A stretch of DNA of 64,000 bases from Candidatus Moraniibacteriota bacterium (GCA_016699975.1 CP064994.1:554167-618166), one strand, 5' to 3'; shown: positions 17,969-60,543, counted from the first letter of the stretch. A program made the numbers and translations. Notes: generated from the letters alone by a model not told the origin.

Positions 17969-18995
17969 AGATTTTCAAGTATTTTTGTCTCTGACATTTC
18001 ATGTATTGCAATTGATTGTTTGCTGATATTTCTATGAAACTCCGATACTTTATTATCGTAGCTGATTGGGAGAAATGGAATTCCTGCGAAGTGAGCAGAT
18101 ATTTGAACGTGGTACTGCGGGGCTATAACGTATAGATTCGAGGCATGTTTTTTGAGTGCCAGAATAAACGCAATTGGGTTATATTCGAAATCCGATGCTG
18201 TGATATTCCCATGCTCCTGTTCCAGAGCCTTCATTTTTGAGTAGAGTTTTGGAGCGATAGTTTTGGATTCGAAGACGACAAGAGAAAATTTCTTTGAAGT
18301 ATTTTTCCGAACGAAATTGAAAAGAGTGTTGGTATAGGTCCAAAATTTCTTGTTGGTGAAGCGGCGAAATCCTACGAGTGTTATTGGTTCATGGAAACCG
18401 AGATTCTTCGATATTTCTTCCGCTTCTTTTTCGTAGGCATCGGTCGAAACTTCATCGAGCGAGAAACTAATATCTCGGTCGAGCAGCGTGTTTGCCTTAT
18501 TAAACTTCGAGAAATTCTCAAAAGTTTCCGGGTCTCGCGCCAAAATAAGTTTTGCTGATTTTGCCGCGAGGTAGGCCGATATTCTGCCTAAGAAAGAAGT
18601 GGATGTGTAATATCCTATTCCCAAAAGGTAGACGTTTTTCCTGGAGAGCTTTGAGAAAAGAAATAAAAGCGCGCTCAATACGAATATATTTTTATTGAAA
18701 TCGAGTCCCCATATCCCTCCTCCTCCTATGATGATATTTTTGAACCGAAAAACCCTTTGAGGATACCGACTTTTTCTGAAGAGTTGATGATTGAATAGCT
18801 AAAGTCGTGATGATATGTTCCGAAAATCTTTGGATTCGAGTAGTAAATTTTTACATTCTTTACTCCGTGTTTCGAGAACAGAAGTTGCAGTATTTCCAAA
18901 AGGAGTTCATCGCCATAATTTGTTCCTCCATAATAGCCTATGAGGAACGTATTTTCGAGATTTCTCGAAGAAAAGAATTTTGAAAGATGATTCAT
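17965..18995 (-). CDS. Polysaccharide pyruvyl transferase family protein (CsaB/WcaK-like), split into two ORFs (18995-18726 and 18678-17965) by an apparent 1-nt deletion
   Basis: N-terminal piece carries IGYYGGTNYGDELLLEIL, the PF04230 signature GYYGxxNxGDE. C-terminal piece has ...ILARDPETFE... and ...ITLVGFRRF..., consistent with the central and C-terminal motifs. Frames differ by one position. AT-rich (about 30% GC). Confidence 0.55.
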
Positions 18996-28669: not shown

Positions 28670-28713
28670 GTTGCAAAGCTCTGGTGAAGGGGCGAGCGTT
28701 TCCGTTTTTTTCT

Positions 28714-30612: not shown

Positions 30613-30756
30613 GCGGATACTCTAGCAAGTTTTCGTCCCTGCGACAATCGGCATCGAGGACCAGGCTCTCTAAAGTTGGCAGTCGGAAAAATTTCTTCTA
30701 TGATGGGTCCATGTGAGTTTTTTGTTGGAAGATGAGCGGGGAATATTTGATGTGAT

Positions 30757-32274: not shown

Positions 32275-32311
32275 GGCAGTGGTTGGCCCTTAGAAAGTTT
32301 TTCCGATTCGG

Positions 32312-34309: not shown

Positions 34310-34397
34310 ATCGGACTCGAGACAGAAAGGATGATTCTCTTTGTTTCAAATTTATGACAGGAAGAAGTTTTCAAGTATCTTTCATTGTTTCCATTGA

Positions 34398-36076: not shown

Positions 36077-36190
36077 AGCAGCGATCAGAAAGTGAAGCAT
36101 TGTTTGGATTCCAAATTTTTTTCATTCCAAGAAATTTTGACGCGAGCGACACAACACTCATAAGAAAGAAGAGAAGTAAAAGCGGTCTCT

Positions 36191-37810
36191 TTGAACATTT
36201 TTTCTATGCATGATTTTTTTTCGCGCTTTCGAAAGGGAGGCATTCGTTTCGATTCCACTCAAGTGGCGTTCATTGCTATTCTTTTTGTCGGAGCATTTCT
36301 CCGGATGTATGAATTTCACGATTGGCTTCGATTTAATCCCGATCAGGCTCGAGATGCGATCGTTGCCTTCGACATGACCACGGGAAAGATCCCGCTTTTG
36401 GGGCCGGTTGCCGGCGGAACCGAGTTTCGATTGGGGACTGTTACGCACTACTTCTCTTTCCTCTCGGGGACGCTCTTCGGCTTTTCTCCGAGTGCCTTGG
36501 CGTATCCGGATCTTTTCTTCTCCATCCTGTTTCTCCCGCTCCTCTTTTTGCTGGTATCGAGAATGTTTGGGACGCGTATCGCACTTTCGGTGATGCTGCT
36601 CGCTGCTCTCTCGGGCTATATGGTGCGCTATGGTCGTTTCGCGTGGAATCCGAACTCCATGCCGTTTTTTACGACGCTCTTTTTCTTGTCGGCGCACAGC
36701 CTTCTTTTTTCTGAAGGAAGGAAGAAATTGCTGTGGGCTGCGCTCTTTGGGATATCAATAGGCATCGGCGTGCAACTCCATACCTTTCTCTTGGTGCTCC
36801 TGCCGATTCTCGCGCTCTTCGTTTTCGTTTTTCTTTTCTTGCAGAAAAAACTTTCTGTTCTCGTGGCAGTCATTTCTCTTTCATGTGCAATATTTCTCAA
36901 TATCCCGCAAATCATTTCCGAGGTTCAAACGAAAGGGATGAATACGAACGCTTTCTTTAATGGAGTAGGAAACAGAACTGAAAGTACGCGCACAGTGAGT
37001 GAGCGGGTGGGACGAGACGCGCTGTGTCATGTGCGATCGAACGCCTTTATTCTGACGAGTCTTGGCCACAGCGATAACTGTAATCGGTTTATCGCACTCA
37101 TGAAAAGGAAGTTTCCCATGACGCATCCGCTTGATATTGTGCACGCGATTCTCGAGATTGTGTTTACCGTTGGAGGAATATTTCTCCTCGGCTTCTTCGC
37201 ATGGAAGGAAACGCGCCTCGAAAAGCGATTTCTCTTTGTCGGAGTGCTTGTATTCATGGTGGCGCTCTTTCTTCTTATCATCCCCGTTTCCAATGAAATC
37301 GCAATGCGGTATTTCTTAGCGTCCGCATTTGTTCCCTTTGTGCTTCTCGGCGCGTGGGGAAAATTTCTCTTCGAGCGCGGGAGGTGGGGTATTGCGACGT
37401 TTGTTCTTTTTGTCTCACTCCTTCTCTTTTTGAACGCGCTTTTCTTGAAGAAAGAGGCAGCGCTCTTTGCGAGCGGTCGCGTGAGCGACGCAGATATGGC
37501 CATTCTCGGTGAGACGGAGCCGCTTGCCGAGTTTCTCTCGCGGCATACTCCTTCTCAAGGAACCGCGCATCTTATCGGCATGAGGAGCTATCGAAAGCGT
37601 TTTCACAAAGCGCTTGCGTATCCTCTTCACCTCGAGGGGAAGAAGCTTCTTCGCTTCGAAAAAAAGGGAATGCCCGAAAAATCAGGGCCCGTTTTTCTTA
37701 TTCGGAAGAAAACAAAATCGTACGATGCCATGAGTGAAATCGACGGCATGCCAATTCTTGATCGAAAAACGAGCGGGCGCGTGAGTGTTTTCCTTCTGAG
37801 ACGAGAATGA
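36191..37810 (+). CDS. GT-C-fold membrane protein, tandem paralog 3
   Basis: 539 aa with the same motif set (NPDQARDA, LLGPVAGGTEFRLG, RFAWNPNS). Its stop overlaps the SET gene start (ATGA at 37807-37810). Confidence 0.65.
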   Translation: MNIFSMHDFFSRFRKGGIRFDSTQVAFIAILFVGAFLRMYEFHDWLRFNPDQARDAIVAFDMTTGKIPLLGPVAGGTEFRLGTVTHYFSFLSGTLFGFSPSALAYPDLFFSILFLPLLFLLVSRMFGTRIALSVMLLAALSGYMVRYGRFAWNPNSMPFFTTLFFLSAHSLLFSEGRKKLLWAALFGISIGIGVQLHTFLLVLLPILALFVFVFLFLQKKLSVLVAVISLSCAIFLNIPQIISEVQTKGMNTNAFFNGVGNRTESTRTVSERVGRDALCHVRSNAFILTSLGHSDNCNRFIALMKRKFPMTHPLDIVHAILEIVFTVGGIFLLGFFAWKETRLEKRFLFVGVLVFMVALFLLIIPVSNEIAMRYFLASAFVPFVLLGAWGKFLFERGRWGIATFVLFVSLLLFLNALFLKKEAALFASGRVSDADMAILGETEPLAEFLSRHTPSQGTAHLIGMRSYRKRFHKALAYPLHLEGKKLLRFEKKGMPEKSGPVFLIRKKTKSYDAMSEIDGMPILDRKTSGRVSVFLLRRE

Positions 37811-38562
37811 GTCCAATATCTTCACCAATTTCTCCTGTTGAGCGAATCACTCCGGCGCTTTTACGGATACGGCCTTCTCAGAAATTTGGCGGTATTGGCG
37901 TGTTTGCTCTTCGTGATATTCCAAAAGGAACGATTCTCTCTCGTGCTGCCTTTCTTCCGAAAGAGCGTTTTCTTTCGTGGAAAGCGTTTCGAAAATTGGA
38001 TGAGATTACCCAGGAATTTGTGCGAAACTTCTGTGCGCACACAAAGCGGGGCGTCTCTCTGCCAGCCGATCTCAGTACGTTGCCCATCGTGTTTCATATG
38101 AATCACCACTGCCGTGGGAACGTGGGCTCCGATGAAGCGGGAAATTTTCTTGCGATTCGAAAAGTGCGCTGCGGCGAAGAGTTGTGTTTCGATTACGCCC
38201 TCGTTATTTCGGATCCTAAATATCGGTTGATATGTCGTTGTGGTGACCCATTGTGTCGAAAAGTAATAACCGGAAACGATTGGAAGGATCCCAATTTTCT
38301 GGAGAACAATTATCGGTATATGTCTCCTGTGCAACGCGCGCTTGTCGATGCGGCGCTTCACCTTGACTCAGAACCTTCTTCCGAATTCTCCATTTCCGAT
38401 CCTTCTCTTCACAGAAGAGGAGGTCGTTCTGCGCTTGAGGCGAAGAGGAAAGACAAATCGGCTCGGAAAAAGTTTGTTGAATTTTTCGCCTCCAATCGGA
38501 TCCTACGTTGTTTCGGGCGTACTTTTTTGTACGTGAAAGTTACGGGCGTGAATCTTCGTTGA
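37807..38562 (+). CDS. SET-domain protein (putative protein-lysine methyltransferase) with basic C-terminal tail
   Basis: GGIGVFALRDIPKGTIL...FHMNHHCRGNV...CGEELCFDYA...CRCGDPLCRKVI: SET core (G.G.FA, NHxC, ELxxDY) plus post-SET Cys cluster. Translationally coupled to the upstream GT-C paralog. Confidence 0.75.
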   Translation: MSPISSPISPVERITPALLRIRPSQKFGGIGVFALRDIPKGTILSRAAFLPKERFLSWKAFRKLDEITQEFVRNFCAHTKRGVSLPADLSTLPIVFHMNHHCRGNVGSDEAGNFLAIRKVRCGEELCFDYALVISDPKYRLICRCGDPLCRKVITGNDWKDPNFLENNYRYMSPVQRALVDAALHLDSEPSSEFSISDPSLHRRGGRSALEAKRKDKSARKKFVEFFASNRILRCFGRTFLYVKVTGVNLR

Positions 38563-40066
38563 TATCTAAAGAGGGAGCTTTGGTGTTTTCCTTGGAAGAA
38601 CCCTTCTTTCTTCTTAGTAGGGAAGAAAGAAGAGCAATATCTTCTTCGGTAAGGATACGGGCAGAGAAGAGGAGGAGGAGAAAGAAACCTCCGAGCCCTG
38701 CCGCAACAAAGAAGGAGGAGAACGTGTCAAACGAAAACGGAAGCGTTGAAAGAAAGAGGAGAAAGCAAAGCAGCATGAAGACAGACACCTTTTTTGTGTG
38801 GAAGGGCGTCTTGACAAAGCGCTGCATGAGAAAAAATGTCGAAACTGTCACGATGAAGGAGCTTATGGTGACGGCCCAAGCGGACCCCACGATGCCGAAC
38901 CGAGGAATCAAGATCCCATTGAGGGTCGCATTGAGGAGTGTGCCGAGGAGTGCGATTCGAAGCGGAAGGCGCGAGTGCCCGAGGCCGATCAATCCTGAAG
39001 ACAGAGTGTAAAAGACGGTGAGAAGTGAGAGTCCGAAAACGAGGACACGAAAAGTATCGGCCGCTTCGGAATATTGGTTCCCGAAGAAGAGGGTGAGGGC
39101 GGGATGAGCTGCGGCCGAGAGCAGGATAGCAAGGGGCAGAAGAATAATCCCCGAGTATCGAAGGGCCTGCGACATGAGTGCTGATACTTTTTCGGGATTC
39201 CCTTCACTTTTTAGTTTGGCGAGTGCGGGAAGGAGGACGATGGAAAGAGCATAAAAAAGAAAGTATGGGAGACGAGCAAGATTGAGAGCGGCATTATAAA
39301 GACCGGTTTGTCTATCGTCTTCTAGCATCACTTGAACCAGATAGAGATCGATCGAAATGAAAATCTCATAGAAGAGTAAAAAGAGCGTAATGGGCCATGA
39401 GGCGACGAGGAGTGTGCGAAAGGGGAAGGTGAGGGGAGTTTCTTCTTTTCTGTTTGATCGAAATGCCGCAGAAGTTTTCCAGTCAAAAAATAAACCGAGA
39501 AGAAAGGTGAGGAATGGCACTATAATATAGCCTGCGATCGCGCCGGGAAGTTTGAAGGAAATGATGAGGGGAACCGTGATAGCAATACGGAGAATTGAGC
39601 GGGTCATTTTGAGAACGGCTTGTATGTCGAATCGGTGAATGCCGGTAAAGTGATAGAAATAGATAGACGAAGCGGCGAATGCTGGAATAATGAGAGAGGA
39701 AAGACGAAGAAGTGGTTTGAGCGCGGGGTCGCCGAGCATAAGGGCAGTAAATGGCGCAAGGAGAAAGAATACTCCCGTCACAACCGTGATAAGAGCGGCC
39801 TGGAGAAGAGCGGCGGTTTTTTGTATGGCGCGTACGGAAGTAGGACTCCCTTCAAAGTGTTCGCTCAAATATCTCGACATGGCGGTCGGGATGCCGTTTC
39901 CAATCAAGATAATGAGTGTGGTAGTGAGGGTGATAACAAGCCCATATCGGCCGTAGTCGGCAGGGCCGAGCACGCGTCCCGAAACGGCGTGGATCACATA
40001 GCCCGAAACATTGAAGAGGATTTCGGCAACAGTAAGGAGAAAAACGGGTTTTGCGAGTGTTGACAT
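38540..40066 (-). CDS. Oligosaccharide flippase (Wzx/MOP superfamily)
   Basis: 508 aa, about 14 TM helices, N-terminus ...LTVAEILFNVSGYVIHAVSGRVLGPADYGRYGLV.... Converges on the SET gene. Confidence 0.7.
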   Translation of the reverse strand: MSTLAKPVFLLTVAEILFNVSGYVIHAVSGRVLGPADYGRYGLVITLTTTLIILIGNGIPTAMSRYLSEHFEGSPTSVRAIQKTAALLQAALITVVTGVFFLLAPFTALMLGDPALKPLLRLSSLIIPAFAASSIYFYHFTGIHRFDIQAVLKMTRSILRIAITVPLIISFKLPGAIAGYIIVPFLTFLLGLFFDWKTSAAFRSNRKEETPLTFPFRTLLVASWPITLFLLFYEIFISIDLYLVQVMLEDDRQTGLYNAALNLARLPYFLFYALSIVLLPALAKLKSEGNPEKVSALMSQALRYSGIILLPLAILLSAAAHPALTLFFGNQYSEAADTFRVLVFGLSLLTVFYTLSSGLIGLGHSRLPLRIALLGTLLNATLNGILIPRFGIVGSAWAVTISSFIVTVSTFFLMQRFVKTPFHTKKVSVFMLLCFLLFLSTLPFSFDTFSSFFVAAGLGGFFLLLLFSARILTEEDIALLSSLLRRKKGSSKENTKAPSLDINEDSRP

Positions 40067-40125
40067 AAGTGGTGGAGTGTTCTACTTTCCGATCAGGTAT
40101 TTAACAACACACAAAGAGGTGCTTC

Positions 40126-47261: not shown

Positions 47262-49333
47262 TTAGGGAAGCTTCTTTCGGTAAACGGCGATATCGTCGGA
47301 AATGTATGGGAGAGTCATCTCTTTCTCTTTTGCGAATTGCGCGGAATCGTAATGTGGATTCACAATCACCGTGTTGACGCGAGTTGCGGCAAAACAGCTT
47401 TGACCTTTCGGTGTGTTCGGAGCCGAAATCATGAGGAGGGTACACTGTTCGCGCGGAGTCGCTTCGTCGGTGTAGCGGCGAAAATAGCCGCGCGAAAGCG
47501 GGTAGGAGTAATCGCGCATGAAAAAAAACTTCATCCATGAGTCGGCAACGATGTAGTTGTGATCTTTGAGAATCCATTCGTCAGGCCGAATTCGTTCGGC
47601 TGCCCAGCGGGAGACAGCAAATGTTTGTACGGCACTTTTTGCGTTGGGCGCTTGAGTCAAAGAGAAAGCATTGTCGAAAAATCCGCCGACGATTGTTGCG
47701 ACGAGAATTGTCGCGAAACTGATCCGGAGAAGTAGGTCGGTTCCATATTGAGGCAAAGGGGTTTCGGATTTTCTCTTGTGGTTTGCAAAGAGAAAAGAAA
47801 AGCAAGCGATGCGAGCAGTATCATTGGGAAATTGGCGTAGGTGCCGATTCTGTTTGAGGGAATGTCGAGGAAAAGTGCTCCCGGAAAGAGCGACATCACA
47901 AGAAGGCTGAATCCCCATCCGAAGGCAATCGCTCCCGAGAGGGTCTTTCGGGCAAAAGAAAAGAGAATAACGAGAAGGCTTACGAGCGCGAGGCCCATGC
48001 GAGCCCCTCCTACCCCTTGTGTAAACTCTGCAAACCCAAGACCTTCTCGGGTCGCTTTGCTTGGTGTGCCGATTGCCGTGTCGATTGATGCAGGATCAAG
48101 ATACGTGGGGAGAGAAATAAAAAATGAAAACAGAAGAACGAGAATGAGAATGGTGAGGGGGAATGGCGAAAAAGCAAGTCGTATCCAGGAGCGCATTTCC
48201 GAGAAGGCAGAGCGGATGTGAAACACGAGGAAAAAGAAAATCGAGAAGAGGACGATAAAGAGCAGGACGAGTGTCGAAAGGTGATGGGTAAAGGCAAGGG
48301 TCGCCCCGACAAAGATGGAGAGTGTCAGGAGAAGCGGATTTTTTTCACGAAGCGCGCGAAAAAGCGCGAGCAAAAAGAGAGGAATGAAAAAGTTTCCGAA
48401 AAGATTTCCGACGACGCCACCGCTCACATATTTTGCTTCGGGAGAGGAAAGAGCCCAGAGCGGCCCCGCCAAAAGAAAAGCGAGGAGGAACGCGCGCTTT
48501 GAAAGATCGTGATTGTGAAAGAGATCTTCCGAAAATCGAAATGCAAGGAGTGCGATCGCAAGCGGTGTGAGCACATTGATTATGAGAAGAAAGAGAGAAG
48601 GAAAAGCCGAGAGAAGCGGGAGGGTGCTGATTTTCGAAAAAGCGGCGAATGGCAGGTGCTCCCCGATGATGAAATCGTCGATTGCTTCTGGCGCAGTGAG
48701 AGTATTACTGCCGTCCGAAAAATTGATGTTTATCTTTTCGTACCGGGGCAATTTTTCGGTGAGTACGATTTTCTGCGCCCAGAACATGTGGTGGCCGAGA
48801 TCGGTCGAAGTGGGGAGAATCGTATTCCACAAGAATGCTCCCTTCATGGTGAGGGTGAGAAAAAAAATGCCGAGAAAGAGAAGTGACTGTCGGCGAGAAA
48901 GGCCGAGGGAAGATTGGGAGGAAGTGAAAGAGTTGGAAGCATCGGCGTTGAGGGGAGTGGTACTTTCCCCTTCTTTTTTTTCGAGCGATATATTGTGTGA
49001 AGAGGGGGGAGAGAAGGTCTGGTGAAGTTTTTGTGACAGGAGTGAAACAATCGATCTATTTCGCAGAAGGAAGAGGCTTGGAATCGCGATCAAAAAAGCC
49101 GACAGGAAAAAGAGGGCTTCTCGGCTGAGGGGAATGTTGAAAAAATGGAGGAGTATCATGCCGGCGTCCATCATGCCGATGCCGAGCGCGAAGGAAAAGA
49201 GGAGCGACTCAAGCGGGAAGAGAGAAAACCGGTGTTGAGATTTTTTGCGAAGCGAAAGGACGAGCCATCCTGGAAGGAAGAACAAAAAAAGAATCGAGAC
49301 GAAAAAAAAGAGAAGTTGGAGGTCGATCGGCAT
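47262..49333 (-). CDS. Polytopic membrane protein (about 690 aa) with C-terminal extracytoplasmic domain, frame broken near 47785-47800
   Basis: 558-aa multi-TM ORF (...TDLGHHMFWAQ...) ends at 47657. The overlapping 218-aa ORF in another frame carries a further TM (LLLRISFATILVATIVGGFF) plus a soluble domain. An apparent 1-nt deletion in the CTCTTTGC run joins them. Confidence 0.55.
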
Positions 49334-49342
49334 AGAAGCGCG

Positions 49343-50488
49343 CTACGAAAAACGGATGCTCTCCGAACCAATTTCGGTGCCATCTACCGGGGGAGTTTGC
49401 CCGGACGTCCGAAGAAAAGTTTCGTGAATGAGAGTGATGTACCGCTCGGAAATGACTGACCAATCAAAGGAGCGGAGAACGAATGTTCTCGCGCGCTCGC
49501 CACAGGCTTTTCGGAAGGATTCGTCTTCGAGGAGCGGCGTGAGTGCTTCTCTCCAGGCGTTTGGGTCTTCGGGTTCGACGAGGAAACCATTTTCTTGATC
49601 ACTGATCGCATCCTGGAGTCCCTCAAGTCGGGAAGCGACGACGGGGATGGCGCACGACGCCGCCTCTACGACTGAAAGACCGAATCCTTCCATGTCTCCC
49701 GCAACTCTGATATTTGGCTGCACAAAAATATCGGATCGGTTCATAAGGATATCGCGCGCGCGATCGCTTACGTACCCCAGAAGTTTCACGCGCGTGAAAA
49801 GACGAGTCTCGGTAATCGCAGAAGTAATATTGGTTCGATCGGGACCGTCTCCCGCGACGATATAGATGATATTTTCCGGAAGTTTCGGGAGGACGTTTCG
49901 AATAAACCACGCAACTCCCTTGCGTTTGGCGAGTCGACCAGAAGTAAGCAGGATTCGTTTTCCGTGAGTTGATTCGCCGAGAATTCCTTCGAGATCGCGT
50001 GCGGTGTACTCGGGATGATAATGTGCGTTTGTGTCAACACCATTGGGAACAAAGGCGAAGCGAGAGAGGGGAATACTACGCTCAACTCCTGCGCGAATGG
50101 TCTCGTTGCCGACCGCGATAAGTCGATCGAGCTTTGGCAAGAATAGGCGGACCCAGAGTGATCGGTACAAGAACAGAGGATACGTGATATCGAGTCCATG
50201 GACGATACTGATCACTGTTCTTTTGGGGGAACACCATTTTACGCACCATCCGATGATGGCGAGGACACCGTCTCCCAGAAGAACAACGTCGAAGCGGTGC
50301 ATGGTGAAAAGAGTGCGAAGAAGAGCAAAGGGCAGAAAAATCGGCAAGAATTTTTTGCCGAAAGGATTTCCCATCGTTGTCACGCTTGCTTTTTTCCCCA
50401 GCCACTTGGAGAGGGCGGCGTTTTGATTTTCGATTCCGCCAACGACGGGTGGACACGCGCGCGAAAGAAAAAGAATGCGAAGAGGCAT
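49343..50488 (-). CDS. Glycosyltransferase family 4
   Basis: MPLRILFLSRACPPVVGGIENQ... N-domain and EGFGLSVVEAASCAIPVVASRLEGL EX7E motif. Start at Met 50488. Confidence 0.8.
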   Translation of the reverse strand: MPLRILFLSRACPPVVGGIENQNAALSKWLGKKASVTTMGNPFGKKFLPIFLPFALLRTLFTMHRFDVVLLGDGVLAIIGWCVKWCSPKRTVISIVHGLDITYPLFLYRSLWVRLFLPKLDRLIAVGNETIRAGVERSIPLSRFAFVPNGVDTNAHYHPEYTARDLEGILGESTHGKRILLTSGRLAKRKGVAWFIRNVLPKLPENIIYIVAGDGPDRTNITSAITETRLFTRVKLLGYVSDRARDILMNRSDIFVQPNIRVAGDMEGFGLSVVEAASCAIPVVASRLEGLQDAISDQENGFLVEPEDPNAWREALTPLLEDESFRKACGERARTFVLRSFDWSVISERYITLIHETFLRTSGQTPPVDGTEIGSESIRFS

Positions 50489-50629
50489 AAAGAGATGAGG
50501 TGATGAGGTATTGAGAATCAGCGTCTGTATATTGTTCGGAACTTGGCTTCTCCCGGAAACATTCGGCGGAGATTTTTTTTGCTCACAGTTTTCTTTGATC
50601 TTTTCCGAAAGAACATTGTTTCGCCTCAC

Positions 50630-51580
50630 TTACTTGGTGTACCGGCGCTTCTTCAGAAAATACATTTGCTCCTCAAGAAGCCGGCGATTCGACTTCACCA
50701 TGTCGGCGAGGAGTGCAAAGACGACGAATTGAAGTCCGACGACAAAGGCGAGCGCACAGAAGAAGAGGTAGTTGCGGTACGGAGAAATTTTGAAGTCCTG
50801 AAAATAGAATCTGAGAAAGACAAGAAAAAGGAGCGCTGAAAATCCCAATAGAACAAACCCTGGAATCCCGAAGAACTTCATGGGGCGTACATCGCGAACA
50901 GCACGCACGATGATGCGCGAACTTTGGCGAATATACTTCGTAACACTTTTTGTCATTTTGGATTTTCGCTCGGCAAAGTAGGTGACTTCGACCGGCACCC
51001 ACAGGATTCGCAAGCCCTTCCCAATTGCATCAATGATGACTTCTTGTGTGTAGGTAAAGTTTTCAAGGAGACTTAGTCTCATGAGCGATTCTCGGCTATA
51101 GGCGCGGAAACCGCAGGTCAGGTCGTGAATCGGCGTCTTCAAAAATTTCGAAATAAGGTGCGCCGCCAAACGGTTGAGTCTCTCTTTGAGAAGTGGAATA
51201 TTTTTGGCAGCATATTTTCCGAAGCGATCGGCGCTCACGATATCCGCCGTTCCTGAGAGAATGGGTTCGATGAGTTCTGGAATATCTTCGGGATCAAATT
51301 GCCCGTCCGCGTCGATATTTACCATGATGTCGGCGCCAACTTCGAGAGCCGCCTCGACCGACGTGCGAAACGCGCGCCCGAGTCCCAGGTTGTGGGGATG
51401 CGAGAAAACGCGCGAAGCACCGGCCTCTCTCGCAATTTTTCCAGTACCATCTTTCGATCCGTCATCCACGACATGGATCAGGACTTCTTCGATTCCCCGA
51501 AAAAATTTCGGGATTTTTTTAATCGTCTCTCCGATTTTTTCGGCTTCGTTGTAAGCGGGAATATTGATAACGAGTTTCAT
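50630..51580 (-). CDS. Glycosyltransferase family 2 (polyprenyl-phosphate sugar synthase-like) with C-terminal TM helices
   Basis: MKLVINIPAYNEAEKI...VVDDGSKDGT...IDADGQFDPED plus 2 TM helices. Confidence 0.85.
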   Translation of the reverse strand: MKLVINIPAYNEAEKIGETIKKIPKFFRGIEEVLIHVVDDGSKDGTGKIAREAGASRVFSHPHNLGLGRAFRTSVEAALEVGADIMVNIDADGQFDPEDIPELIEPILSGTADIVSADRFGKYAAKNIPLLKERLNRLAAHLISKFLKTPIHDLTCGFRAYSRESLMRLSLLENFTYTQEVIIDAIGKGLRILWVPVEVTYFAERKSKMTKSVTKYIRQSSRIIVRAVRDVRPMKFFGIPGFVLLGFSALLFLVFLRFYFQDFKISPYRNYLFFCALAFVVGLQFVVFALLADMVKSNRRLLEEQMYFLKKRRYTK

Positions 51581-51835
51581 AGAGGCGATATCAAAATTTT
51601 TTCATTAGGAAACTTTTTCATCGGGAGAAGAGGGGCTCACTCTCTCACTCTCTTGTGCGCCTTTGTTTTCTCTCTCTTTCACCACACGAACATTCTTGTG
51701 TGGAAGGCGCTCGGACTTTCTCTTCATGGTACTTGAATATCATACCGGAGTGCGACTTGCGAGAGATGCTTTCCTCAGTTTTGTTCGTCCCTCTTCGGAA
51801 GAGATGACTGCGGGGCGAATAAGTGGGCAAACATC

Positions 51836-53492: not shown

Positions 53493-54602
53493 AGAGAAAC
53501 TAGGTGAATTCAAACCCCGAAGCCCCTTTTCTGGTATACTCCGGCGTTAACTTCCAAAAACGCTATGAATATGCCAAAAGGAACGTCCATAACCTTCTTT
53601 GAACGAGAGCGAATCGAAAGCTTTCTCCGCATGAAGAAAAAGAAAACATGGATCGCGGAGAAACTTGGAAGAGATTACTCCGTCATCAAGCGAGAGATAC
53701 GAAGAAATTCGAGTCCGCACCTTCCCTATGTTGCCATCCGAGCTGAAGCGTATGCGGAAAGACGAAAGAAAAATACCAACAAAAGAAAACTGGAAAAATG
53801 GCAAAACGAGAAACTGAAAAAGTTTGTCGAAAGCGAACTCCTGAAGGGACATTCACCGGAGCAGATAGCCGGCCGGTTGAAAACATCTCCTCCGAAAAAA
53901 TCTTTCCTCGTGTACGGATACCTCGATAAGTTACGAATCCATCTATGATTACATTTACCGCGGAGAAGGAAGGGTCGGCGGATGGTACAAACATCTGCGA
54001 CGAAAACAGAAGCGGAGACGACCAAAGTTCTCTCGAAAACCGCGAAAAGAGACGATTCCGGATAGAATACCCATTCACGAAAGACCCGCGGTCATTACCA
54101 AGCGTACACACTTTGGAGACTGGGAAACCGATTCCGTGATATTCTCAAAACAGAAGTCAGTACTCTCGGTACAGTACGAGCGAAAAATGAAGCTATGCCG
54201 ATTAAAGAAAGTTCCAAACAAAACAGCGGTCGAAAGCGAACGAGCGATACAGGGACATTTCTCTCGGCTTCCGCAGCAATTGAGGAGAAGTATTACGAGA
54301 GATAATGGAACGGAGAATGTTTTGCACGGAGAAACGAAACAAAAACTTTCTCTTCCTTCCTACTTCTGCGATACCTACAAAAGTTGGCAGAAAGGAGGTG
54401 TGGAAAACTTGAATGGATTGTTACGAGAGTATTTTCCGAAGAAATGCCCGTTTGATAAAATTTCCCAAAAAGAAGTTCGGTCAGTTCAGGACAAACTCAA
54501 CAATCGACCGAGGAAAGCGCTTAACTATTTGACGCCGAATGAAGTTTTTGCCAGGGTACTGGAAAAGGGGCATTAAATTCTTGAACTCACCCTATTTTTC
54601 AC
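53493..54602 (+). mobile_element. IS30-family insertion sequence (about 1.1 kb) with imperfect 20-bp terminal inverted repeats
   Basis: IRL gagaaactaggtgaattcaa (53493-53513) versus reverse complement of IRR gaaaaatagggtgagttcaa (54582-54602). Encloses an IS30 transposase. Confidence 0.65.
53565..54576 (+). CDS. IS30-family transposase (DDE), reading frame broken twice (near 53930-53950 and 54125-54140; both apparent 1-nt deletions)
   Basis: N-terminal HTH ...SVIKREIRRNSS..., GHSPEQIAGRL (WSPEQI signature), HFGDWETDSV, DNGTEN, YFCDTYKSWQKGGVENLNGLLREYFPK, LNNRPRKALNYLTPNEVF. Three ORFs lie in frames 0, 2, 1. Confidence 0.7.
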
Positions 54603-54752: not shown

Positions 54753-55139
54753 ATGAGTATGGATAAAAAAAATTGGTGGTTGTTCGGAATTTTCGGAGGA
54801 CTTCTCATTTTTGCTATCTTTTTCACCGCGGTCAAAATGTTTTTGTTGCGAGACTATTGGGTACAAGGAATGTCGCGATGCGATCCGAGTCGAGAACGGT
54901 GTTTTCTTCGTTCGTGCGAGAATGAAGAGTCAATGTGTCCCGAAGGAGTTTCGACGTTCTTTTACAAAATTGTACAGAAAAAAGCATATGCCGTTCGAGC
55001 GTGCCCGAGCGAGGAAAACGACTGCTCTTTACTTCGGTGTGAACCAGATGAAAAGGATTGCTTTGAAACGTTCTGTTCTTCCGATCATCCCGAAGATATT
55101 CCCGAAGGCGAGAGATGTAGTGAGGAAAAACAAGAATGA
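54753..55139 (+). CDS. Small membrane-anchored Cys-rich acidic protein (12 Cys in about 95-aa ectodomain)
   Basis: TM WWLFGIFGGLLIFAIFFTAV, then ...CDPSRERCFLRSCENEESMCPEG...CPSEENDCSLLRCEPDEKDCFETFCSS.... Confidence 0.4.
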   Translation: MSMDKKNWWLFGIFGGLLIFAIFFTAVKMFLLRDYWVQGMSRCDPSRERCFLRSCENEESMCPEGVSTFFYKIVQKKAYAVRACPSEENDCSLLRCEPDEKDCFETFCSSDHPEDIPEGERCSEEKQE

Positions 55140-55184
55140 TGCTTCCTTGGCGTATCGACCACCATACTTTTCCTGAATAATATT

Positions 55185-55820
55185 GTGAATCATCAGGCGT
55201 TCATGGTTGTCATGGGAGGGCTAGCGGGAGTGATTTCATTATTTGCTTACATCCCTTATATTCTTTCGATTCTTCATGGGAAAACAGTTCCAAGCAAAAG
55301 TACTTGGTGGATCCTCAGCGCTTTGGGAGGAGTGACATTCTTATCTTATCGGGATGCTGGAGGATTCAATACCTCATTTTTTCTTCTAGGGGATGTCATT
55401 GGGTCTTCGGTAGTAGCATTTCTCAGTCTTTTTTATGGTAAGAAAAGTATACAGAAACTCGACATTTTCTGTTTTCTTGGAGCCGCAGCTAGTTTTATTC
55501 TCTGGTTTTTTATAAATGAAAATCCTTCCATTGCCTTCTGTTCCGGCTTGTTCGTCGAAGTCATTGCGATGATTCCTACGATAAGGAAGATCGTGGCCAA
55601 TCCTTTTGAAGAAGATATCGGTGGATGGTTTCTCACTTTTCTTGCCTCGGTTGTCAATAGTTATGCCATTGAAGAGTGGAGCTTTGTAGTTTTTTTCTAT
55701 CCATTTTATGAAGTGGGTATAAATGGTCTCGTCGTTTTTCTTATTTCTTCCGGGAGAAAGAAATTGCTTCGCGTAAATATTCCTTTCATTCGTATGGACT
55801 CAAGTGCTCTTGCTAAATGA
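55185..55820 (+). CDS. Hypothetical 6-TM membrane protein
   Basis: 211 aa with six hydrophobic helices. Its stop lies 8 nt before the SET-domain gene ATG. Confidence 0.5.
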   Translation: MNHQAFMVVMGGLAGVISLFAYIPYILSILHGKTVPSKSTWWILSALGGVTFLSYRDAGGFNTSFFLLGDVIGSSVVAFLSLFYGKKSIQKLDIFCFLGAAASFILWFFINENPSIAFCSGLFVEVIAMIPTIRKIVANPFEEDIGGWFLTFLASVVNSYAIEEWSFVVFFYPFYEVGINGLVVFLISSGRKKLLRVNIPFIRMDSSALAK

Positions 55821-55827
55821 AAGACGT

Positions 55828-56328
55828 ATGTGCCTGCAAAAAGACCTGTATGTTTCACGATCAATGATATCTGGACGAGGTCTTTTCTGTCGAGTAAATA
55901 TTCCTCGAGGAAAGCCAATTTTTGTTATGAAAGGAAGAACGGTCTCTTTCAAGGTTTCGACAAAAAAAGACGCGATGCTTTTTCCCTCGAGAGTTGGCAT
56001 CGGTAAAGATACTTGGATGGAACCCGACATGAAATTTGTCAAATTTATTAATCATTCATGCGAACCGACAGCGGGTATTCGGGGACGAGTAACTTTCGTG
56101 GCTTTGTGCGATATACCAGCAGGAGAAGAAATTACTTTTGACTATTCAATATCTGAAGATAGCCAATGGGAAATGCCGTGCTCGTGTGGTGCGAAAAGCT
56201 GTCGAAAAATTATAAAAGGGGTGCAGAATCTTCCTGAAAGTATTTTCAATTCTTATCTTCCTTTTATACCAAAGTACTTTCAGAAAGTGTACAGAAAATC
56301 GAAGTTCTCCTCGCGCACAAAAAAATAG
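55828..56328 (+). CDS. SET-domain protein (second copy; putative protein-lysine methyltransferase)
   Basis: ISGRGLFCRVNIPRGKPIF...FINHSCEPTAG...AGEEITFDYS...CSCGAKSCRKII: SET core plus post-SET Cys cluster. An upstream GTG at 55804 is also possible. Confidence 0.7.
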   Translation: MCLQKDLYVSRSMISGRGLFCRVNIPRGKPIFVMKGRTVSFKVSTKKDAMLFPSRVGIGKDTWMEPDMKFVKFINHSCEPTAGIRGRVTFVALCDIPAGEEITFDYSISEDSQWEMPCSCGAKSCRKIIKGVQNLPESIFNSYLPFIPKYFQKVYRKSKFSSRTKK

Positions 56329-56390
56329 TTTTCATCAGAAAGAAGTGAGGAGAGTTGAATATCTCTATTTGAATTCTCTCTTTACCCTCT

Positions 56391-58073
56391 ATGGACAACA
56401 TTGGAGATCTCTGTCATTGGGACAGTGCAAAATTTTTCCTCTTTTCAGGGAACGTCTTTGATCCTCTTATTTATTATTCCCATTTCGCCCCTCTCATAGT
56501 CTCTCTTTTGATCGGCGGCTTCGTTCTCTATACTAATTGGAAAAGCGTGGAAAATTTGGCGCTTTTTTTTGTCATGATATTCTTTTCTTTCTGGGTTCTC
56601 ATTGATTCCGTGCTCTGGGCTTCTGAAAAGCCTTCGGTAATCATGTTTGTTTGGTCGGTACAGATATTTCTTGACCTCCTTATTTATGCTGCGGCCGCCC
56701 TCTTTACTTTTGTTTTCATAAAAAAAAGAATTTCCTTTTCACTTCTGATGATCCTTTTTCTTTTCTTTATTCCACTTTTTCTTTTTTCTTCATCACATTT
56801 TAATCTTGAATATTTTGATGTCACAAATTGCGACCGGGAAGCATCGGAAGGATTCCTGTGGAATTATGTGTACACCGTTGAAACGTTCCTTATCGTATGG
56901 ATATTTGTATTCGTGCTCTCCGCTTCTTTTAAAGAGACAGATCGGACTATCAAGAGAAAATATTATTTCTTTCTTGCAGGCATCCTTTCTCTCCTCGTAG
57001 CCTTTTCATTTGGAAATATAGTCGGAAACTTTACCGAAAACTGGTCCTATGGTCAATATGGACTTTTCGGAATGCCTGTTTTTTCCGTATTTCTTTCTTA
57101 CTTGGTAGTCCGTTATAGAATCCTCAGCGTTAAGCTTATCGCCACACAAGTTTTGGTAATTGCGCTGGTAATTCTCATCGGTTCCCAGCTCTTCTTCATA
57201 AATACCGGGAAGATACTCTTAATTTTCATCCTGACATCAATAACGTTTATTCTTGCAGTGATATTTGGGATTCTTCTCATTCGCTCTGTCAACAATGAAG
57301 TGCGCAGAAAAGAAGAGTTGCAGCGCCTTACCGATGATCTTGCTGAGGCAAATGCGGAGCTTCGACGACTTGACGAGTCGAAAACAGAGTTCATTTCCAT
57401 CGCTTCGCACCAACTGCGCACCCCCTTGAGTGCCATCAAGGGATTCGTTGCGCTGCTTGCCGATGGTTCATACGGCACGCTTCCGAAGACGGCCGAAGAT
57501 ATTGTGAAAAGAGTATCAATCGCGACCGAGCGACTCATTCGCTTGGTTGAAAATTTGCTCAATATTTCTCGGATGGAGGCGGGTCGCCTCGAGTACCGGT
57601 ACACGGAAGTTGATTTTTCGGATGTTTTGTTTGAACTCAGAGATTCTTTTTCGGTACTTGCTTCGGAAAAGGAAGTAGTGATTTCCTTTGACATTCCCGA
57701 GCGAGGAGTGATGCCGTGCTTTCTTCTTGATCGCGATAAAATGATTGAGGTGATTTCCAATCTTATAGATAACGCGCTCAAGTATACGCCTCATGGTTTT
57801 GTGCGCGTGAGAGCAGAGCTTCTTTACGATGCTGTACGCATTTCCGTAACCGATACCGGGATGGGGTTCTCGCCAGAGATGAAACCGCTCCTCTTCCAAA
57901 AATTCTCGCGCGGCAGGCATGCTGAACGATTTGATACGAATGGAAGCGGCCTCGGCCTCTATGTGGGAAAGAGAATGGTGGAGGCGCAGGGCGGAAAGAT
58001 TTGGGCAACGTCAGAAGGAGAAGGGAAGGGATCTTCGTTCTTCGTAAGTTTCCCGATCAAAAGAGCAGAGTAA
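56391..58073 (+). CDS. Sensor histidine kinase with about 8-TM N-terminal sensor domain (HisKA plus HATPase_c)
   Basis: H-box SHQLRTPLSAIKGF. N-box VISNLIDNALKYT. G-boxes DTGMGF and GSGLGLYVGKRM. A coiled-coil linker precedes HisKA. No response regulator is adjacent in the window. Confidence 0.85.
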   Translation: MDNIGDLCHWDSAKFFLFSGNVFDPLIYYSHFAPLIVSLLIGGFVLYTNWKSVENLALFFVMIFFSFWVLIDSVLWASEKPSVIMFVWSVQIFLDLLIYAAAALFTFVFIKKRISFSLLMILFLFFIPLFLFSSSHFNLEYFDVTNCDREASEGFLWNYVYTVETFLIVWIFVFVLSASFKETDRTIKRKYYFFLAGILSLLVAFSFGNIVGNFTENWSYGQYGLFGMPVFSVFLSYLVVRYRILSVKLIATQVLVIALVILIGSQLFFINTGKILLIFILTSITFILAVIFGILLIRSVNNEVRRKEELQRLTDDLAEANAELRRLDESKTEFISIASHQLRTPLSAIKGFVALLADGSYGTLPKTAEDIVKRVSIATERLIRLVENLLNISRMEAGRLEYRYTEVDFSDVLFELRDSFSVLASEKEVVISFDIPERGVMPCFLLDRDKMIEVISNLIDNALKYTPHGFVRVRAELLYDAVRISVTDTGMGFSPEMKPLLFQKFSRGRHAERFDTNGSGLGLYVGKRMVEAQGGKIWATSEGEGKGSSFFVSFPIKRAE

Positions 58074-58177
58074 AAGTTTGGAATTTTCTTCCACCAAGCC
58101 CCTTCTCTTTCTGAGGCGATTGGGCTCATGGAAACGAAAAACACCTCTCTCTACAAGAGGCATTTCTTCTTTTCTTC

Positions 58178-58253
58178 TGGTGCGCTCGGCAGGAATCGAA
58201 CCTGCGGCCTTCTGGACCGGAACCAGACGCTCTCTCCACTGAGCTACGAGCGC
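58178..58253 (-). tRNA. tRNA-Arg (anticodon CCG), CCA-encoded
   Basis: GCGCTCGTAGCTCAGTGGAGAGAGCGTCTGGTTCCGGTCCAGAAGGCCGCAGGTTCGATTCCTGCCGAGCGCACCA. 7-bp acceptor, D-arm GCTC/GAGC, anticodon stem TCTGG/CCAGA, loop TTCCGGT, T-arm GCAGG TTCGATT CCTGC. Confidence 0.85.
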
Positions 58254-58341: not shown

Positions 58342-59130
58342 ATGGATGTGAGCATCATCATTGTGAATTACCGGAGCCGCGAGAAGACCCGCGGCTGTCT
58401 TTTGTCGCTTCAGAAAGCGGATTTCTCGAATATTTCTCATGAAATTCTCGTGGTCGACAATAGCGAAACGGCCGATATCGACTCTTCATTTCAGGCAGAA
58501 TTTCCGGAGGTGCAGTTTTTGTATGCTGAGAAAAATCGCGGCATGGGCGCGGGAAACAATCTCGCCGCGACGAAGGCAGAGGGGAAATTTCTCCTTATTT
58601 TAAATCCCGATACCGCAGTACGAAAGACGGCGGTATCGACGCTTTTTTCGCTCCTTCGTGATCGACCCGACATCGGGATCGTTGGGCCGAAGCTTCTCAA
58701 TCCCGATGGGACGCTTCAATATTCGTGTCTTCGGTTTCCGGAATTCTGGACACCTATTTTTCGTCGTACATTCTTAGGGCGATGGGCGCCACGGCATCTC
58801 GCCCGATACTTAATGATTGACTTTGATCACTGCGAGACACGCGATGTTGACTGGATGATGGGCTCGTGCCTTATGATTCGTACTGATTTCTATCGACGCG
58901 CAGGCGGATTCGACGAACGATTTTTCATGTATTTCGAGGATATCGATTTGTGTCGCCGTGCGTGGCGCGAGGGTTTGCGGGTGGTTTATTGCCCGCAGGC
59001 GGAAGTCGTGCATGATCACGGGCGTGGGAGCGCGCGCGATCGATGGTTCATCGCGCCTTTTACGAGTCGTCTGGCGCGCGAACATATACTTTCGTGGCTC
59101 AAATACGGGTGGAAATGGAGATTTCGGTAG
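58342..59130 (+). CDS. Glycosyltransferase family 2 (WbbL/rhamnosyltransferase-like)
   Basis: MDVSIIIVNYRS, VVDNSE, ILNPD, MGSCLMIR, FFMYFEDIDLCRRA. Confidence 0.85.
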   Translation: MDVSIIIVNYRSREKTRGCLLSLQKADFSNISHEILVVDNSETADIDSSFQAEFPEVQFLYAEKNRGMGAGNNLAATKAEGKFLLILNPDTAVRKTAVSTLFSLLRDRPDIGIVGPKLLNPDGTLQYSCLRFPEFWTPIFRRTFLGRWAPRHLARYLMIDFDHCETRDVDWMMGSCLMIRTDFYRRAGGFDERFFMYFEDIDLCRRAWREGLRVVYCPQAEVVHDHGRGSARDRWFIAPFTSRLAREHILSWLKYGWKWRFR

Positions 59131-59209
59131 ACTGGTTTTTCTCGCTTCTTGCGCGCTTTTTCTGAACGCGCTAGGATTTTGAATCACTTTCTCTCATTTT
59201 TTTCTTCTT

Positions 59210-60543
59210 ATGGACAAACAGGAACGAACTCTCATTCATGAGACGCCACAACGAGCGGGGGAGCGCGTTCGACTTCTGGGATGGGTCAATATGCGTCGGG
59301 ATCATGGCAAGATTCTCTTTCTCGATCTTCGTGATCGGACGGGAGTGGTGCAGGTTGTCGTAATTCCGGATCACGAGGAGGCATACGAAGCGGCGCGCGC
59401 GGCAAAGAATGAATGCGTTATCGAGGTTTTCGGTACCGTCAAAGTCCGACCCGGAGGCGCCGCACGCATCGGAATCTTGGGTGGCATTGAAATAGAAGCC
59501 GATTCGATCTCGATCATTTCTTCCCCGAGAATCCGCTTCCGTTTGAAGTAAATGAAGGGAGCTTGGAGGAGCTCCACTTGGAAACACTTCTCAACAATCG
59601 CATATTTTCCCTTCGGAATCGAAATATTCAAGCAATTTTTCGTCTCTACGGAATTCTCCTCGAGTCCTATGCCGAGGCGCTCCGAACGCGCGGCTTTCTC
59701 GAGATCAAAACGCCGAAAATCGTGAGTGCGGCGACGGAGGGAGGTGCGAACTTCTTTAAGATAAAATATTTCGATCGCGACGCTTACCTTGCGCAAAGCC
59801 CGCAATTTTATAAGCAGGCGGGCGCTACCGTTTTTGAACGTGTCTTTGAAATCGGTCCGGTCTTTCGGGCGGAACCGCACTTTACGACACGACACGTAAA
59901 CGAATACATCAGTCTCGATGCCGAAATGGCTTTTATCGAGAACGTGGGTGATGTTATGGACGAACTCGAAGGCATTGTTGCGGACGTTTTCTCAATGCTT
60001 GCGGAAAAGGGGAAGAGCGAACTGGCGCTCTGGGATGTTTCGCTTCCAGCGGCGGTTCCTATTCCGCGCATAAAACTGACTGAAGCTTTGCATATTCTGG
60101 AAAAAGAGTATGGAAAAAAGATGGAAGGCGGTGAGATCGATATTGATCCGGAAGGAGAGCGACTGATTGGAGAATATGTGAAGAAGGTGTTTGACTCAGA
60201 TTTTGTTTTTTTGACCCATTATCCGACTGCTATTCGTCCGTTTTATACGATGCCGGGACCTGATCCGCATTTTACGGAGAGCTTTGACCTCCTCTTTCGT
60301 GGTCTCGAAATGGTGACCGGCGGGCAACGCATTCACGAGTATCGTCGACTTGTCGATTCCATCAAATCACGCGGACTCGTGCCCGATGATTTTTCGAGTT
60401 ACCTCGACGTCTTTCGTTACGGTGCGCCGCCTCATGGTGGATGGGGCGGGGGATCGGAACGCACGATTCAACAACTCCTGGGTCTCCCGACCGTGAAGCA
60501 GGCTGTTCTCTTTCCGCGCGACGTGAAACGCCTCGCGCCGTGA
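59210..60543 (+). CDS. aspS: Aspartyl-tRNA synthetase, archaeal/eukaryal type (class IIb), frame broken at C4 59523-59526
   Basis: N-terminal OB domain ...VRLLGWVNMRRDHGKILFLDLRDRTGVVQVV.... After the break: PENPLPFEVNE..ETLLNNRIFSLRNRNIQAIFRL, motif 2 GPVFRAEPHFTTRHVNEYISLDAEMAF, motif 3 GAPPHGGWGGGSERTIQ. Adding one C restores about 445 aa. Confidence 0.8.

Follow-up and report, generated by a model that had tools for sequence, protein, structure and literature searches.

A candidate membrane signalling module of Patescibacteria that pairs a sensor histidine kinase with a SET-domain protein

Sensor kinases are modulated by small or accessory regulators in pairs such as MgrB-PhoQ, SafA-PhoQ, MzrA-EnvZ and YycH/YycI-WalK, and co-sensing of the transporter-kinase type is represented by BceAB-BceS, DctA-DcuS and LysP-CadC. 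In chemotaxis, the MCP-CheA pathway adapts through the methylation system CheR/CheB, in which glutamate is O-methylated. SET-domain proteins also occur in archaea, as exemplified by Go1-SET of Methanosarcina. To our knowledge, the bacterial SET enzymes with a demonstrated role are host-directed effectors and BurB, the rest having no known function, and we know of no kinase link for BurB, NUE or Go1-SET. NUE of Chlamydia is a secreted SET effector (PMC2904774) and BurB a bacterial SET enzyme that methylates free methionine (PMC12542666), and polytopic sensor kinases of the HisKA_7TM type (PF16927) have been noted in archaeal and bacterial censuses (PMC5847659). Here we analyse a stretch of 64,000 nucleotides (nt) from Candidatus Moraniibacteriota bacterium (GCA_016699975.1, CP064994.1:554167-618166), hereafter the window, in which four genes at positions 54753-58073 encode a Cys-rich membrane-anchored protein, a multi-pass membrane protein, a SET-domain protein and a membrane sensor histidine kinase. 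In a search of 8 million full texts, no paper was found to connect SET domains to histidine kinases or to Patescibacteria (also called candidate phyla radiation, CPR), nor did we find a SET-kinase association described in the literature on prokaryotic SET gene neighbourhoods; the locus presents two-component signalling with an accessory set of which we found no description.

Our reading is that the four genes form one membrane signalling module, characteristic of Patescibacteria (Paceibacteria and Moranbacteria-type lineages) and built of two coupled halves, and we regard this proposal as evenly balanced between holding and failing. An open reading frame (ORF) scan of the window confirmed the four genes on the plus strand: the Cys-rich protein (54753/54759-55139; 126-128 amino acids (aa), with one N-terminal transmembrane (TM) helix and an acidic ectodomain), the multi-pass membrane protein (55185/55203-55820; 205-211 aa), the SET protein (55804/55828-56328; 166-174 aa, PF00856) and the histidine kinase (56391-58073; 560 aa, HisKA and HATPase_c). 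The intergenic gaps are 45-63, 7 and 62 nt in this order; a simple scan detected no plus-strand terminator-like site between the four genes and a weak one after the kinase (58144-58160). The initial annotation, made from the sequence of the window, had described four same-strand genes with short gaps in which the stop of the membrane protein abuts the SET start, and both statements hold: the ATG at 55828 lies 7 nt past that stop, and an alternative GTG start overlaps it by 17 nt. The same four genes are also present on an independent public 3.6-kb contig (Logan contig L001). A riboswitch and RNA-family scan of 53.3-58.5 kb recovered the neighbouring tRNA alone, and among the PADLOC defence models only a generic HATPase model (PDC-M43B, E 5e-7) matched, to the kinase, the other three proteins matching none.

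The gene set is conserved in relatives. The alignment of the kinase sensor domain was scanned over one genome per GTDB species and found relatives in 190 species, of which the best 80 loci were analysed. Their labels are mostly Patescibacteria (Paceibacterota/Parcubacteria, Moraniibacteriota, Nomura-, Zambryski-, Kaiser- and Taylorbacteria, and Minisyncoccota); for many metagenome-assembled genomes the automatic label is "uncultured Candidatus Saccharibacteria". Some of these labels are plainly in error, and three that fall outside the phylum (Bdellovibrionales, Gammaproteobacteria) look like such cases. Counts were taken over the 75 loci with at least 1.5 kb upstream, with profile hidden Markov models (HMMs) iterated on the loci analysed. 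In 54 of the 75 loci, a SET gene directly precedes the kinase in the same orientation, and in 64 one occurs within 2.6 kb of it on either strand. The membrane protein, to which we refer as 7TM for its seven predicted helices in a SWEET-like fold, is encoded near the kinase in 55/75 loci, and a member of the single-pass anchor family that includes the Cys-rich protein (see below) in 64/75; SET, 7TM and anchor occur together in 49/75. Spacing is tight, with median gaps of 36 nt from the 7TM stop to the SET start and of 7 nt from the SET stop to the anchor start. Homologues of 7TM and SET were also placed by exact-sequence look-up on metagenomic contigs with unrelated flanks, and the order 7TM, SET, kinase is kept wherever the contig is long enough (L002, L004, L009/L010, L011, L012, L013-L015, L016/L017). 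The complete order seen in the window, Cys-rich protein, 7TM, SET and kinase, recurs in L019. The earlier suggestion of a functional module thus gains from the kinase-SET pairing in dozens of Patescibacteria species with differing flanks, from the tight gaps and from fusions of 7TM with SET and of the anchor with the kinase.

The kinase comprises a sensor domain (56391-57300) and a transmitter (57301-58073), the latter with a coiled-coil linker, a dimerization and histidine phosphotransfer (DHp) region and a catalytic ATP-binding domain, and it is recognized by HisKA (PF00512, E 1.7e-16) and HATPase_c (PF02518, E 1.2e-23). The phospho-acceptor H340, located in SHQLRTPL, is invariant in the family alignment, as are the N, G1, F and G2 boxes of the catalytic domain (N457/N461, D488/G490/G492, F502 and G518/G520/G522). 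An AlphaFold2 (AF2) model of residues 1-310, based on 58 homologues, reached a predicted local distance difference test (pLDDT) score of 90.7 and a predicted template modelling (pTM) score of 0.84. It contains nine TM helices, instead of the eight counted originally, and its outer face displays a strand from the N-terminus together with a beta-hairpin formed by residues 139-153. The helices are arranged around a predicted seven-helix core with the same connectivity as the transmembrane domains of G protein-coupled receptors (GPCRs), a likeness that we take as resemblance of fold and not as homology. Conserved features of the sensor are C8, C147, YYSH, W68/D72/W76 and YGLFG.P, the two cysteines being located in the outer strand and the outer hairpin. 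The HisKA_7TM profile aligns with the window kinase over positions 2-222 of 224 at 23.1 bits (E 7.4e-5), below the cut-off of 28.6, and several kinase homologues bear precomputed PF16927 annotation. Distant members of the kinase family mostly have no HisKA Pfam hit and present the DHp consensus E.L.H...H..KG..T.S, in contrast to the SHQLRTPL of the window clade; the same sensor is thus combined with two kinds of phospho-acceptor region.

The Cys-rich protein starts with the short basic stretch MSMDKKN and continues through a single hydrophobic helix into an acidic tail; these parts correspond to a cytoplasmic MDKK tail, the TM helix, an outer RDYWV motif and an acidic ectodomain. The latter contains 10 Cys, two fewer than first reported, and no Pfam or NCBIfam family was found for the protein. 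Full-length homologues with 10 conserved Cys are encoded in Moranbacteria-like loci (L002, L014, L019, L023, L036, L093-L095), adjoining the 7TM gene in L002 and L019 and lying a few kb upstream in the others. Most other lineages replace the long form by an ORF of 42-58 aa between SET and kinase, whose product shares homology with the first ~40 residues of that form (consensus MDKKSK-I[LF]F...S...TYYRYVV..D[YF].[IV]FTDE). This short anchor abuts the kinase in 42 loci, with a median stop-to-start gap of 2 nt that never exceeds 12 nt (42/42), and in one case (L021) it is fused in frame to the kinase N-terminus; the fusion is topologically consistent, since the anchor C-terminus and the kinase N-terminus are both predicted outside. 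Although the anchor HMM is short and hydrophobic, the conservation of polar motifs and the constant location of the hits speak against drift. Because its N-terminus is homologous to the kinase-abutting anchor, the Cys-rich protein belongs to the module. We propose that it is the long form of a kinase-associated single-pass subunit, with an added disulfide-rich ectodomain and a putative accessory role in sensing. The cytoplasmic tail MDKKSK of the anchor is conserved at 2.2-2.9 bits per position, equal to the outer motif. The idea that this tail tracks the presence of SET was rejected, the tail being conserved in SET-less loci too.

The 7TM protein had been described as having six TM helices, and the AF2 model, built on an alignment with eight close homologues, gives seven at moderate confidence (pLDDT 71). 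The predicted structure shows the 3+1+3 arrangement of the SWEET/PQ-loop/KDEL-receptor type, and the positive-inside rule places the N-terminus outside and the basic C-terminus inside. Two conserved prolines, P18 and P125, lie at the cytoplasmic ends of TM1 (AYIPYI..R..T.PS..TWW) and TM5 (AMIPTI.K...EED); of the PQ-loop motif only these prolines are conserved and not the glutamine. There was no match to Pfam or NCBIfam, PF03083 (MtN3_slv) and PF04193 (PQ-loop) included, the profile matched no PDB sequence, and a repeat-versus-repeat comparison with hhalign gave no significant internal repeat (E 0.09). Membership in the SWEET/PQ-loop group is hence suggested by the predicted fold and is not demonstrable at the sequence level. 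The family is large, with 3061 representatives at E<=1e-3 and 1451 at E<=1e-10 in an exhaustive profile search. A GTDB scan with the 7TM alignment came back empty, for which narrow peptide patterns are to blame, the kinase-anchored scan later giving the 55 loci; a metagenome scan with 7TM yielded three loci only, one of them a remote homologue that looks archaeal and has neither SET nor kinase.

Fusions connect this family to methyltransferases. Single polypeptides joining 7TM and SET were found in three independent cases (L087, P0253, P0246), the SET part of P0253 being 43% identical to the window SET, its C-terminal tail included. These fusions place the SET domain at the cytoplasmic C-terminus of 7TM. 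Further members are fused to a PrmA-like class I methyltransferase (P0276) and to another class I methyltransferase (P0317). We propose that 7TM may keep the SET enzyme in place, as a platform in the membrane or as a transporter. A 190-aa homologue (31% identical) is encoded at L008 9983-10555, on an archaeal-looking 149-kb metagenomic contig, with no SET or kinase nearby, so the family reaches well beyond the module. Two tandem 7TM genes are present in L022, L041 and L063. In L074 (6597-7130) and L082 (6557-7153), and also in L094, L040, L025 and L054, a multi-pass protein of ~178 aa lies between the anchor and a kinase-abutting PrmA/PRMT-like methyltransferase; it has no Pfam family, is missed by the 7TM HMM, and may substitute for the SWEET-fold protein without being its homologue.

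The SET protein matches PF00856 with E 2.4e-13 (50.9 bits, cut-off 22.4). Invariant in the clade alignment are GxG (G16/G18), NHSC (N75/H76/C78) and EEITFDY (E100/E101/F104/D105/Y106), together with the three cysteines of a post-SET CxCx4C (C118, C120, C125), which line up with those in the post-SET region of MLL1. The C-terminus is a tail of ~35 aa that is specific to the clade (LP..F.SYLPFIP.YFQ.VY). The nearest solved structure is the SET domain of MLL1/KMT2A (E 1.6e-16, full length), and relatives of the window protein form about 48 clusters at >=40% identity. From their motifs, both SET and kinase look functional, all catalytic boxes and motifs and also the zinc cluster of SET being present. 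The 7TM-SET fusions, which place SET at the cytoplasmic face, argue against a secreted, host-directed effector, and a lead towards carnitine and trimethyl-lysine gave nothing usable.

The position of SET can be taken by an unrelated enzyme. In eight loci, the gene that adjoins the kinase encodes a class I methyltransferase of PrmA/PRMT5-like type (PrmA E 3e-14 to 2e-13; PRMT5 5e-7 in L073). Four of these (L073, L074, L082, L096) have no SET within 2.6 kb, and in the other four (L050, L071, L072, L079) a minus-strand SET is also present. Taken together, a SET or PrmA/PRMT-like methyltransferase gene stands beside the kinase in 68/75 loci (91%). That two unrelated folds fill one slot indicates that the module requires the methyl transfer as such.

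Several variations on the SET gene were observed. Two SETs are encoded in L036, L087 and L090 and three in tandem on the JGI 3300075153 contig, an extra minus-strand SET occurs in L016, L032, L056, L060 and L065, and a second, shorter SET subfamily (about 138 aa) often lies divergently beside the module. In L007 (2306-3244), SET is replaced between 7TM and kinase by a protein of 312 aa that belongs to no Pfam family and of which the other examined loci contain no homologue. At L070 (6965-7978), in a Moraniibacteriota genome with neither SET nor 7TM at the locus, a deoxyhypusine synthase (PF01916, E 7e-93) is encoded directly upstream of the kinase; it is another lysine-modifying enzyme at this position, which may be a coincidence. 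The SET of the module is, as noted before, the second of the window. The first (37807-38562, 251 aa, PF00856 E 3e-7, post-SET CRCGx3C), in the region 36191-38562, overlaps by 4 nt the stop of a 539-aa membrane glycosyltransferase of the PMT_2 family, so that a second SET in the window is translationally coupled to a polytopic membrane protein.

The absence of a nearby response regulator, pointed out in the initial annotation, is true of the window and not of all relatives. A phmmer search with three divergent receivers over all six frames of the 64 kb found no receiver domain (best E 0.56), and a first pass over early related contigs found none. A minority of relatives does encode receiver (REC) proteins, directly after the kinase in 5/80 loci (L019, L021, L023, L040, L093) and anywhere in the locus in 12/80. 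Those by the kinase are REC-REC proteins of 275-294 aa or single REC proteins of 125-131 aa with no output domain, so that output must act at the protein level.

Downstream synteny identifies where the regulator would be expected. In L019, the four genes are followed, tightly packed, by REC-REC and AspRS, and L093 has the order kinase, REC-REC, AspRS. L095 presents EamA, kinase, tRNA-Arg(ccg) on the minus strand, the glycosyltransferase GT2 and then REC. In the window, the kinase is followed by tRNA-Arg(ccg) (58178-58253, minus strand; ARAGORN, Rfam 71.6 bits), GT2 (58342-59130, plus strand; Pfam) and AspRS (59210-60543, plus strand; Pfam), all three being syntenic neighbours. The GT2-AspRS gap, the slot where relatives encode the receiver, measures only 80 nt (59131-59209), so that at this otherwise syntenic site the regulator has been either lost or relocated.

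Gene content, predicted folds, linkage and fusions are what the analysis shows; from them we infer a scheme for which proteins form complexes, what is methylated and which way information flows. The sensing half would consist of the nine-helix kinase with its GPCR-like core and of the single-pass anchor packing against it, and the Cys-rich ectodomain, present here in the long form of the anchor, would most likely provide or modulate the extracellular input. In the methylation half, the SWEET/PQ-loop-fold protein would hold SET at the cytoplasmic membrane face. N-methylation of a membrane-proximal protein, dependent on S-adenosylmethionine (SAM), would be an integral step of the pathway, either tuning the kinase (adaptation or memory) or serving as its enzymatic output. 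Candidate substrates are the Lys-rich tail of the anchor (MDKKSK), the kinase itself or the receiver, the tail being only a lead. Phosphotransfer would proceed to REC-REC or single-REC regulators with no DNA-binding output, which are no longer encoded at the locus here. That protein lysine (or arginine) N-methylation is built in this way, in a large part of Patescibacteria, into a two-component pathway with a GPCR-like kinase and a detachable co-receptor, by a membrane-tethered SET or a PrmA/PRMT-like substitute, is a tentative proposal about which we are more doubtful than confident.

Several observations weigh against this scheme. The nearest SET structures are histone H3K4 methyltransferases, but BurB shows that free amino acids are possible substrates; the choice of the methylation substrate is pure inference. 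The MDKKSK tail is also kept where no methyltransferase is adjacent, and the window protein has only MDKKN. Seven of the 75 loci have neither a SET nor a PrmA-like gene, and three of them carry an EamA transporter instead. The 80 loci, the best of 190, were selected through the kinase, and the 7TM model is of moderate confidence only. Finally, other members of the 7TM family are fused to a C-terminal STAS domain (P0283), to TPR (P0286) and to a lysyl-phosphatidylglycerol (lysyl-PG) synthase domain (P0268), so that 7TM may in fact be a transporter, with a small molecule or a lipid as the possible substrate of SET.

Part of these observations fits the main alternative, a transport-coupled methylation of small molecules, in which 7TM would transport an amino acid or amine, SET would methylate the cargo (as a trap, an osmolyte or an export product) and the kinase would only sense or regulate the process, in the manner of transporter-kinase co-sensing. 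The 7TM fold matches SWEET and cystinosin transporters, STAS domains, as in the 7TM-STAS fusion, are borne by SulP anion transporters, an EamA transporter lies upstream of the kinase in L084, L093 and L095, and fusions of transporters with enzymes often represent consecutive steps on one substrate. BurB, with its free methionine substrate, matches the window SET at E 6e-9; this match is only partial, however, and SET is far nearer to the MLL-type protein lysine methyltransferases, which it matches over the full length (E 1.6e-16). The enzyme that replaces SET is PrmA/PRMT5-like, which also points to protein N-methyltransferases. Furthermore, no riboswitch or metabolic genes were found with the module, and as DNA-binding domains are missing from the receivers, a transporter operon under classical regulation is not apparent. 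We consider this alternative unlikely, and give precedence to the methylation of a protein.

Another explanation, already hinted at in the initial annotation by the position between an insertion sequence (IS) and a tRNA gene, is a recently acquired island, borne by an IS30 element and not integrated in host signalling, hence with no regulator. Both flanking features were found where described. The IS30-family element (53522-54576, plus strand) forms the upstream boundary of the module and is not a member of it. Its candidate 15-nt inverted repeats (53522-53536, 54557-54571) are 87% complementary, and its transposase matches HTH_38 (E 3.5e-8) and, weakly, rve_3 (E 0.0032, 17.6 bits, below the 26.5-bit cut-off). 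The transposase is spread over three frames (53565-53948, 53945-54139, 54136-54576) with overlaps of 4 nt (53945-53948, 54136-54139), which could reflect a decayed element or assembly indels. The IS30 DNA had no match among plasmids. The ends of Logan contig L001 are near the IS30 and the tRNA, which would follow from further copies of the IS in that genome.

Composition gives this idea some ground: the GC content at third codon positions (GC3) is 0.36-0.43 from the IS30 (0.43) through the sensor half of the kinase, compared with 0.52-0.56 in the flanks, other membrane-protein genes included. This covers the 5' part of the suspected region (53.4-58.3 kb), and the kinase core, at 0.52, is flank-like and host-like. 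L095, the closest downstream-syntenic relative, has no 7TM and SET upstream of its kinase. The window kinase core is as close to that of L095 (61%) as to the SET-bearing clade (58-63%), and the sensor is much nearer to the SET-bearing clade (59-67%) than to L095 (44%). A clear recombinant origin of the kinase was considered on this basis and set aside as suggestive, no donor or recipient being close enough for proof. The tRNA part of the island idea did not stand: the same tRNA-Arg(ccg), in the same place and orientation and followed by GT2, lies after the kinase in L095, which makes it ancestral synteny and not an integration scar. Together with the order kinase, REC, AspRS in L019 and L093, this puts the kinase at its ancestral site. 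The module is, moreover, vertically widespread in the phylum, and ORF and Pfam scans around the tRNA, in which direct repeats were not searched for, showed no integrase. At most, the 5' part was swapped for homologous DNA of a relative; such a partial replacement is possible, and we judge it improbable.

A remodelling of envelope lipids would make 7TM present the head group of an amino-lipid (e.g. lysyl-PG), which SET would N-methylate under an envelope-stress-sensing kinase. The fusion of 7TM in P0268 to a lysyl-PG synthase domain of the MprF type (LPG_synthase_C, E 8.8e-16), the cell-wall genes nearby (Ddl in L002, peptidase M15 in L007 and L014) and the richness of the window in envelope glycosyltransferases agree with it. 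This explanation depends on that single fusion, however, neither the window nor the related loci examined showed a lysyl-PG synthase, and we know of no SET enzyme that acts on a lipid; its chance appears slim. Finally, a chance neighbourhood with no functional coupling in the dense, syntenic and small genomes of Patescibacteria, where housekeeping genes (HisRS, AspRS, NUDIX) are also recurrent neighbours, is hardly credible, given that the flanks vary by lineage while the core stays together, that the 7TM-SET and anchor-kinase fusions are independent and that a different methyltransferase takes over the position of SET.

The surroundings of the module offer some further observations. A few kb upstream, relatives (L002, L004, L007, L014, L015) share recurrent genes for HisRS, a NUDIX fusion of 483-484 aa, a protein with a CntK_N-like racemase domain, a peptidase M15 (VanX/VanY-like) and Ddl, which suggests an older conserved neighbourhood with cell-wall genes. 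Downstream in the window, a frameshift near 59510-59550 divides AspRS into two ORFs that lie in different frames, one for the OB fold (59210-59551) and one for the catalytic part (59563-60543). The frame of the latter reads through FPENPLPFEVNEG, so the break is probably due to one indel near the run atttcttcccc. Since AspRS is presumably essential, an assembly indel is suggested unless a second copy exists. The lowest GC of the window (0.33-0.39) is found at 14801-18678, where two minus-strand ORFs of 1055 and 237 aa have a GC3 of 0.38-0.43, closer in composition to the module than to the rest of the window. An envelope glycosylation cluster occupies 28700-40100 and 47600-51600 (PMT/PMT_2, a MurJ/Polysacc_synt flippase, GT2, GT4 and two UDP-glucose dehydrogenases), and no receiver or further sensor kinase of the module's family was detected among its genes.

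The interest of the locus comes from its hosts and from its enzyme. Patescibacteria are a very large and mostly uncultivated group, many of them thought to be host-dependent, with poorly characterised biology (PMC11665869). Present in at least 190 species-level genomes, the module is a candidate means of sensing hosts or surroundings in this group. One bacterial SET subfamily gains a conserved cellular context, at the cell's own membrane, with a SWEET-fold protein and a sensor kinase. If the proposed scheme is true, N-methylation would join the known ways of modulating histidine-kinase signalling in bacteria, as a lysine-methylation counterpart of chemotaxis-style adaptation or output, and a bacterial SET enzyme would for the first time have a cell-autonomous role in signalling.

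Compared to the described systems, each half of the module has partial precedents. Like the HisKA_7TM kinases, the window kinase carries an N-terminal multi-helix membrane sensor directly before the transmitter; unlike them, it scores below the family threshold and has nine helices and an outer beta-hairpin with a conserved Cys, and we did not find a partner methyltransferase, 7TM or anchor described for that family. The anchor resembles MgrB, SafA, MzrA and YycH/YycI in being a single-pass protein encoded beside its kinase and proposed to bind its TM or periplasmic part, a contact that the L021 fusion supports. Its sequence is unrelated to theirs, on the other hand, and it occurs in short (42-58 aa) and long 10-Cys forms that are co-inherited with the kinase across the phylum.

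The 7TM protein recalls the co-sensing systems, in which the gene of a membrane kinase devoid of a large extracytoplasmic domain accompanies that of a polytopic protein of transporter type; here, the transporter-like protein is predicted to be of SWEET/PQ-loop fold and is tied to a methyltransferase. It differs from SWEET, SemiSWEET, the PQ-loop proteins (cystinosin, PQLC2) and the KDEL receptor in the missing Pfam and PDB sequence matches and in the PQ glutamine. The SET protein shares with BurB, NUE and Go1-SET the small stand-alone format and the canonical motifs; NUE is secreted, however, and BurB is a soluble metabolic enzyme, whereas the SET of the module is membrane-tethered (in the fusions), linked to a kinase and provided with its own C-terminal tail.

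The whole arrangement can be compared with chemotaxis. Pfam scans of the module and its neighbours detected no CheR, CheB, MCP, CheW or CheA P-domains. As in chemotaxis, a histidine-kinase pathway is genetically tied to a SAM-dependent protein methyltransferase, with receivers that have no DNA-binding output; by analogy, the glutamate O-methylation of that pathway would be matched here by lysine or arginine N-methylation, carried out by a SET (class V) or PrmA/PRMT-like enzyme.

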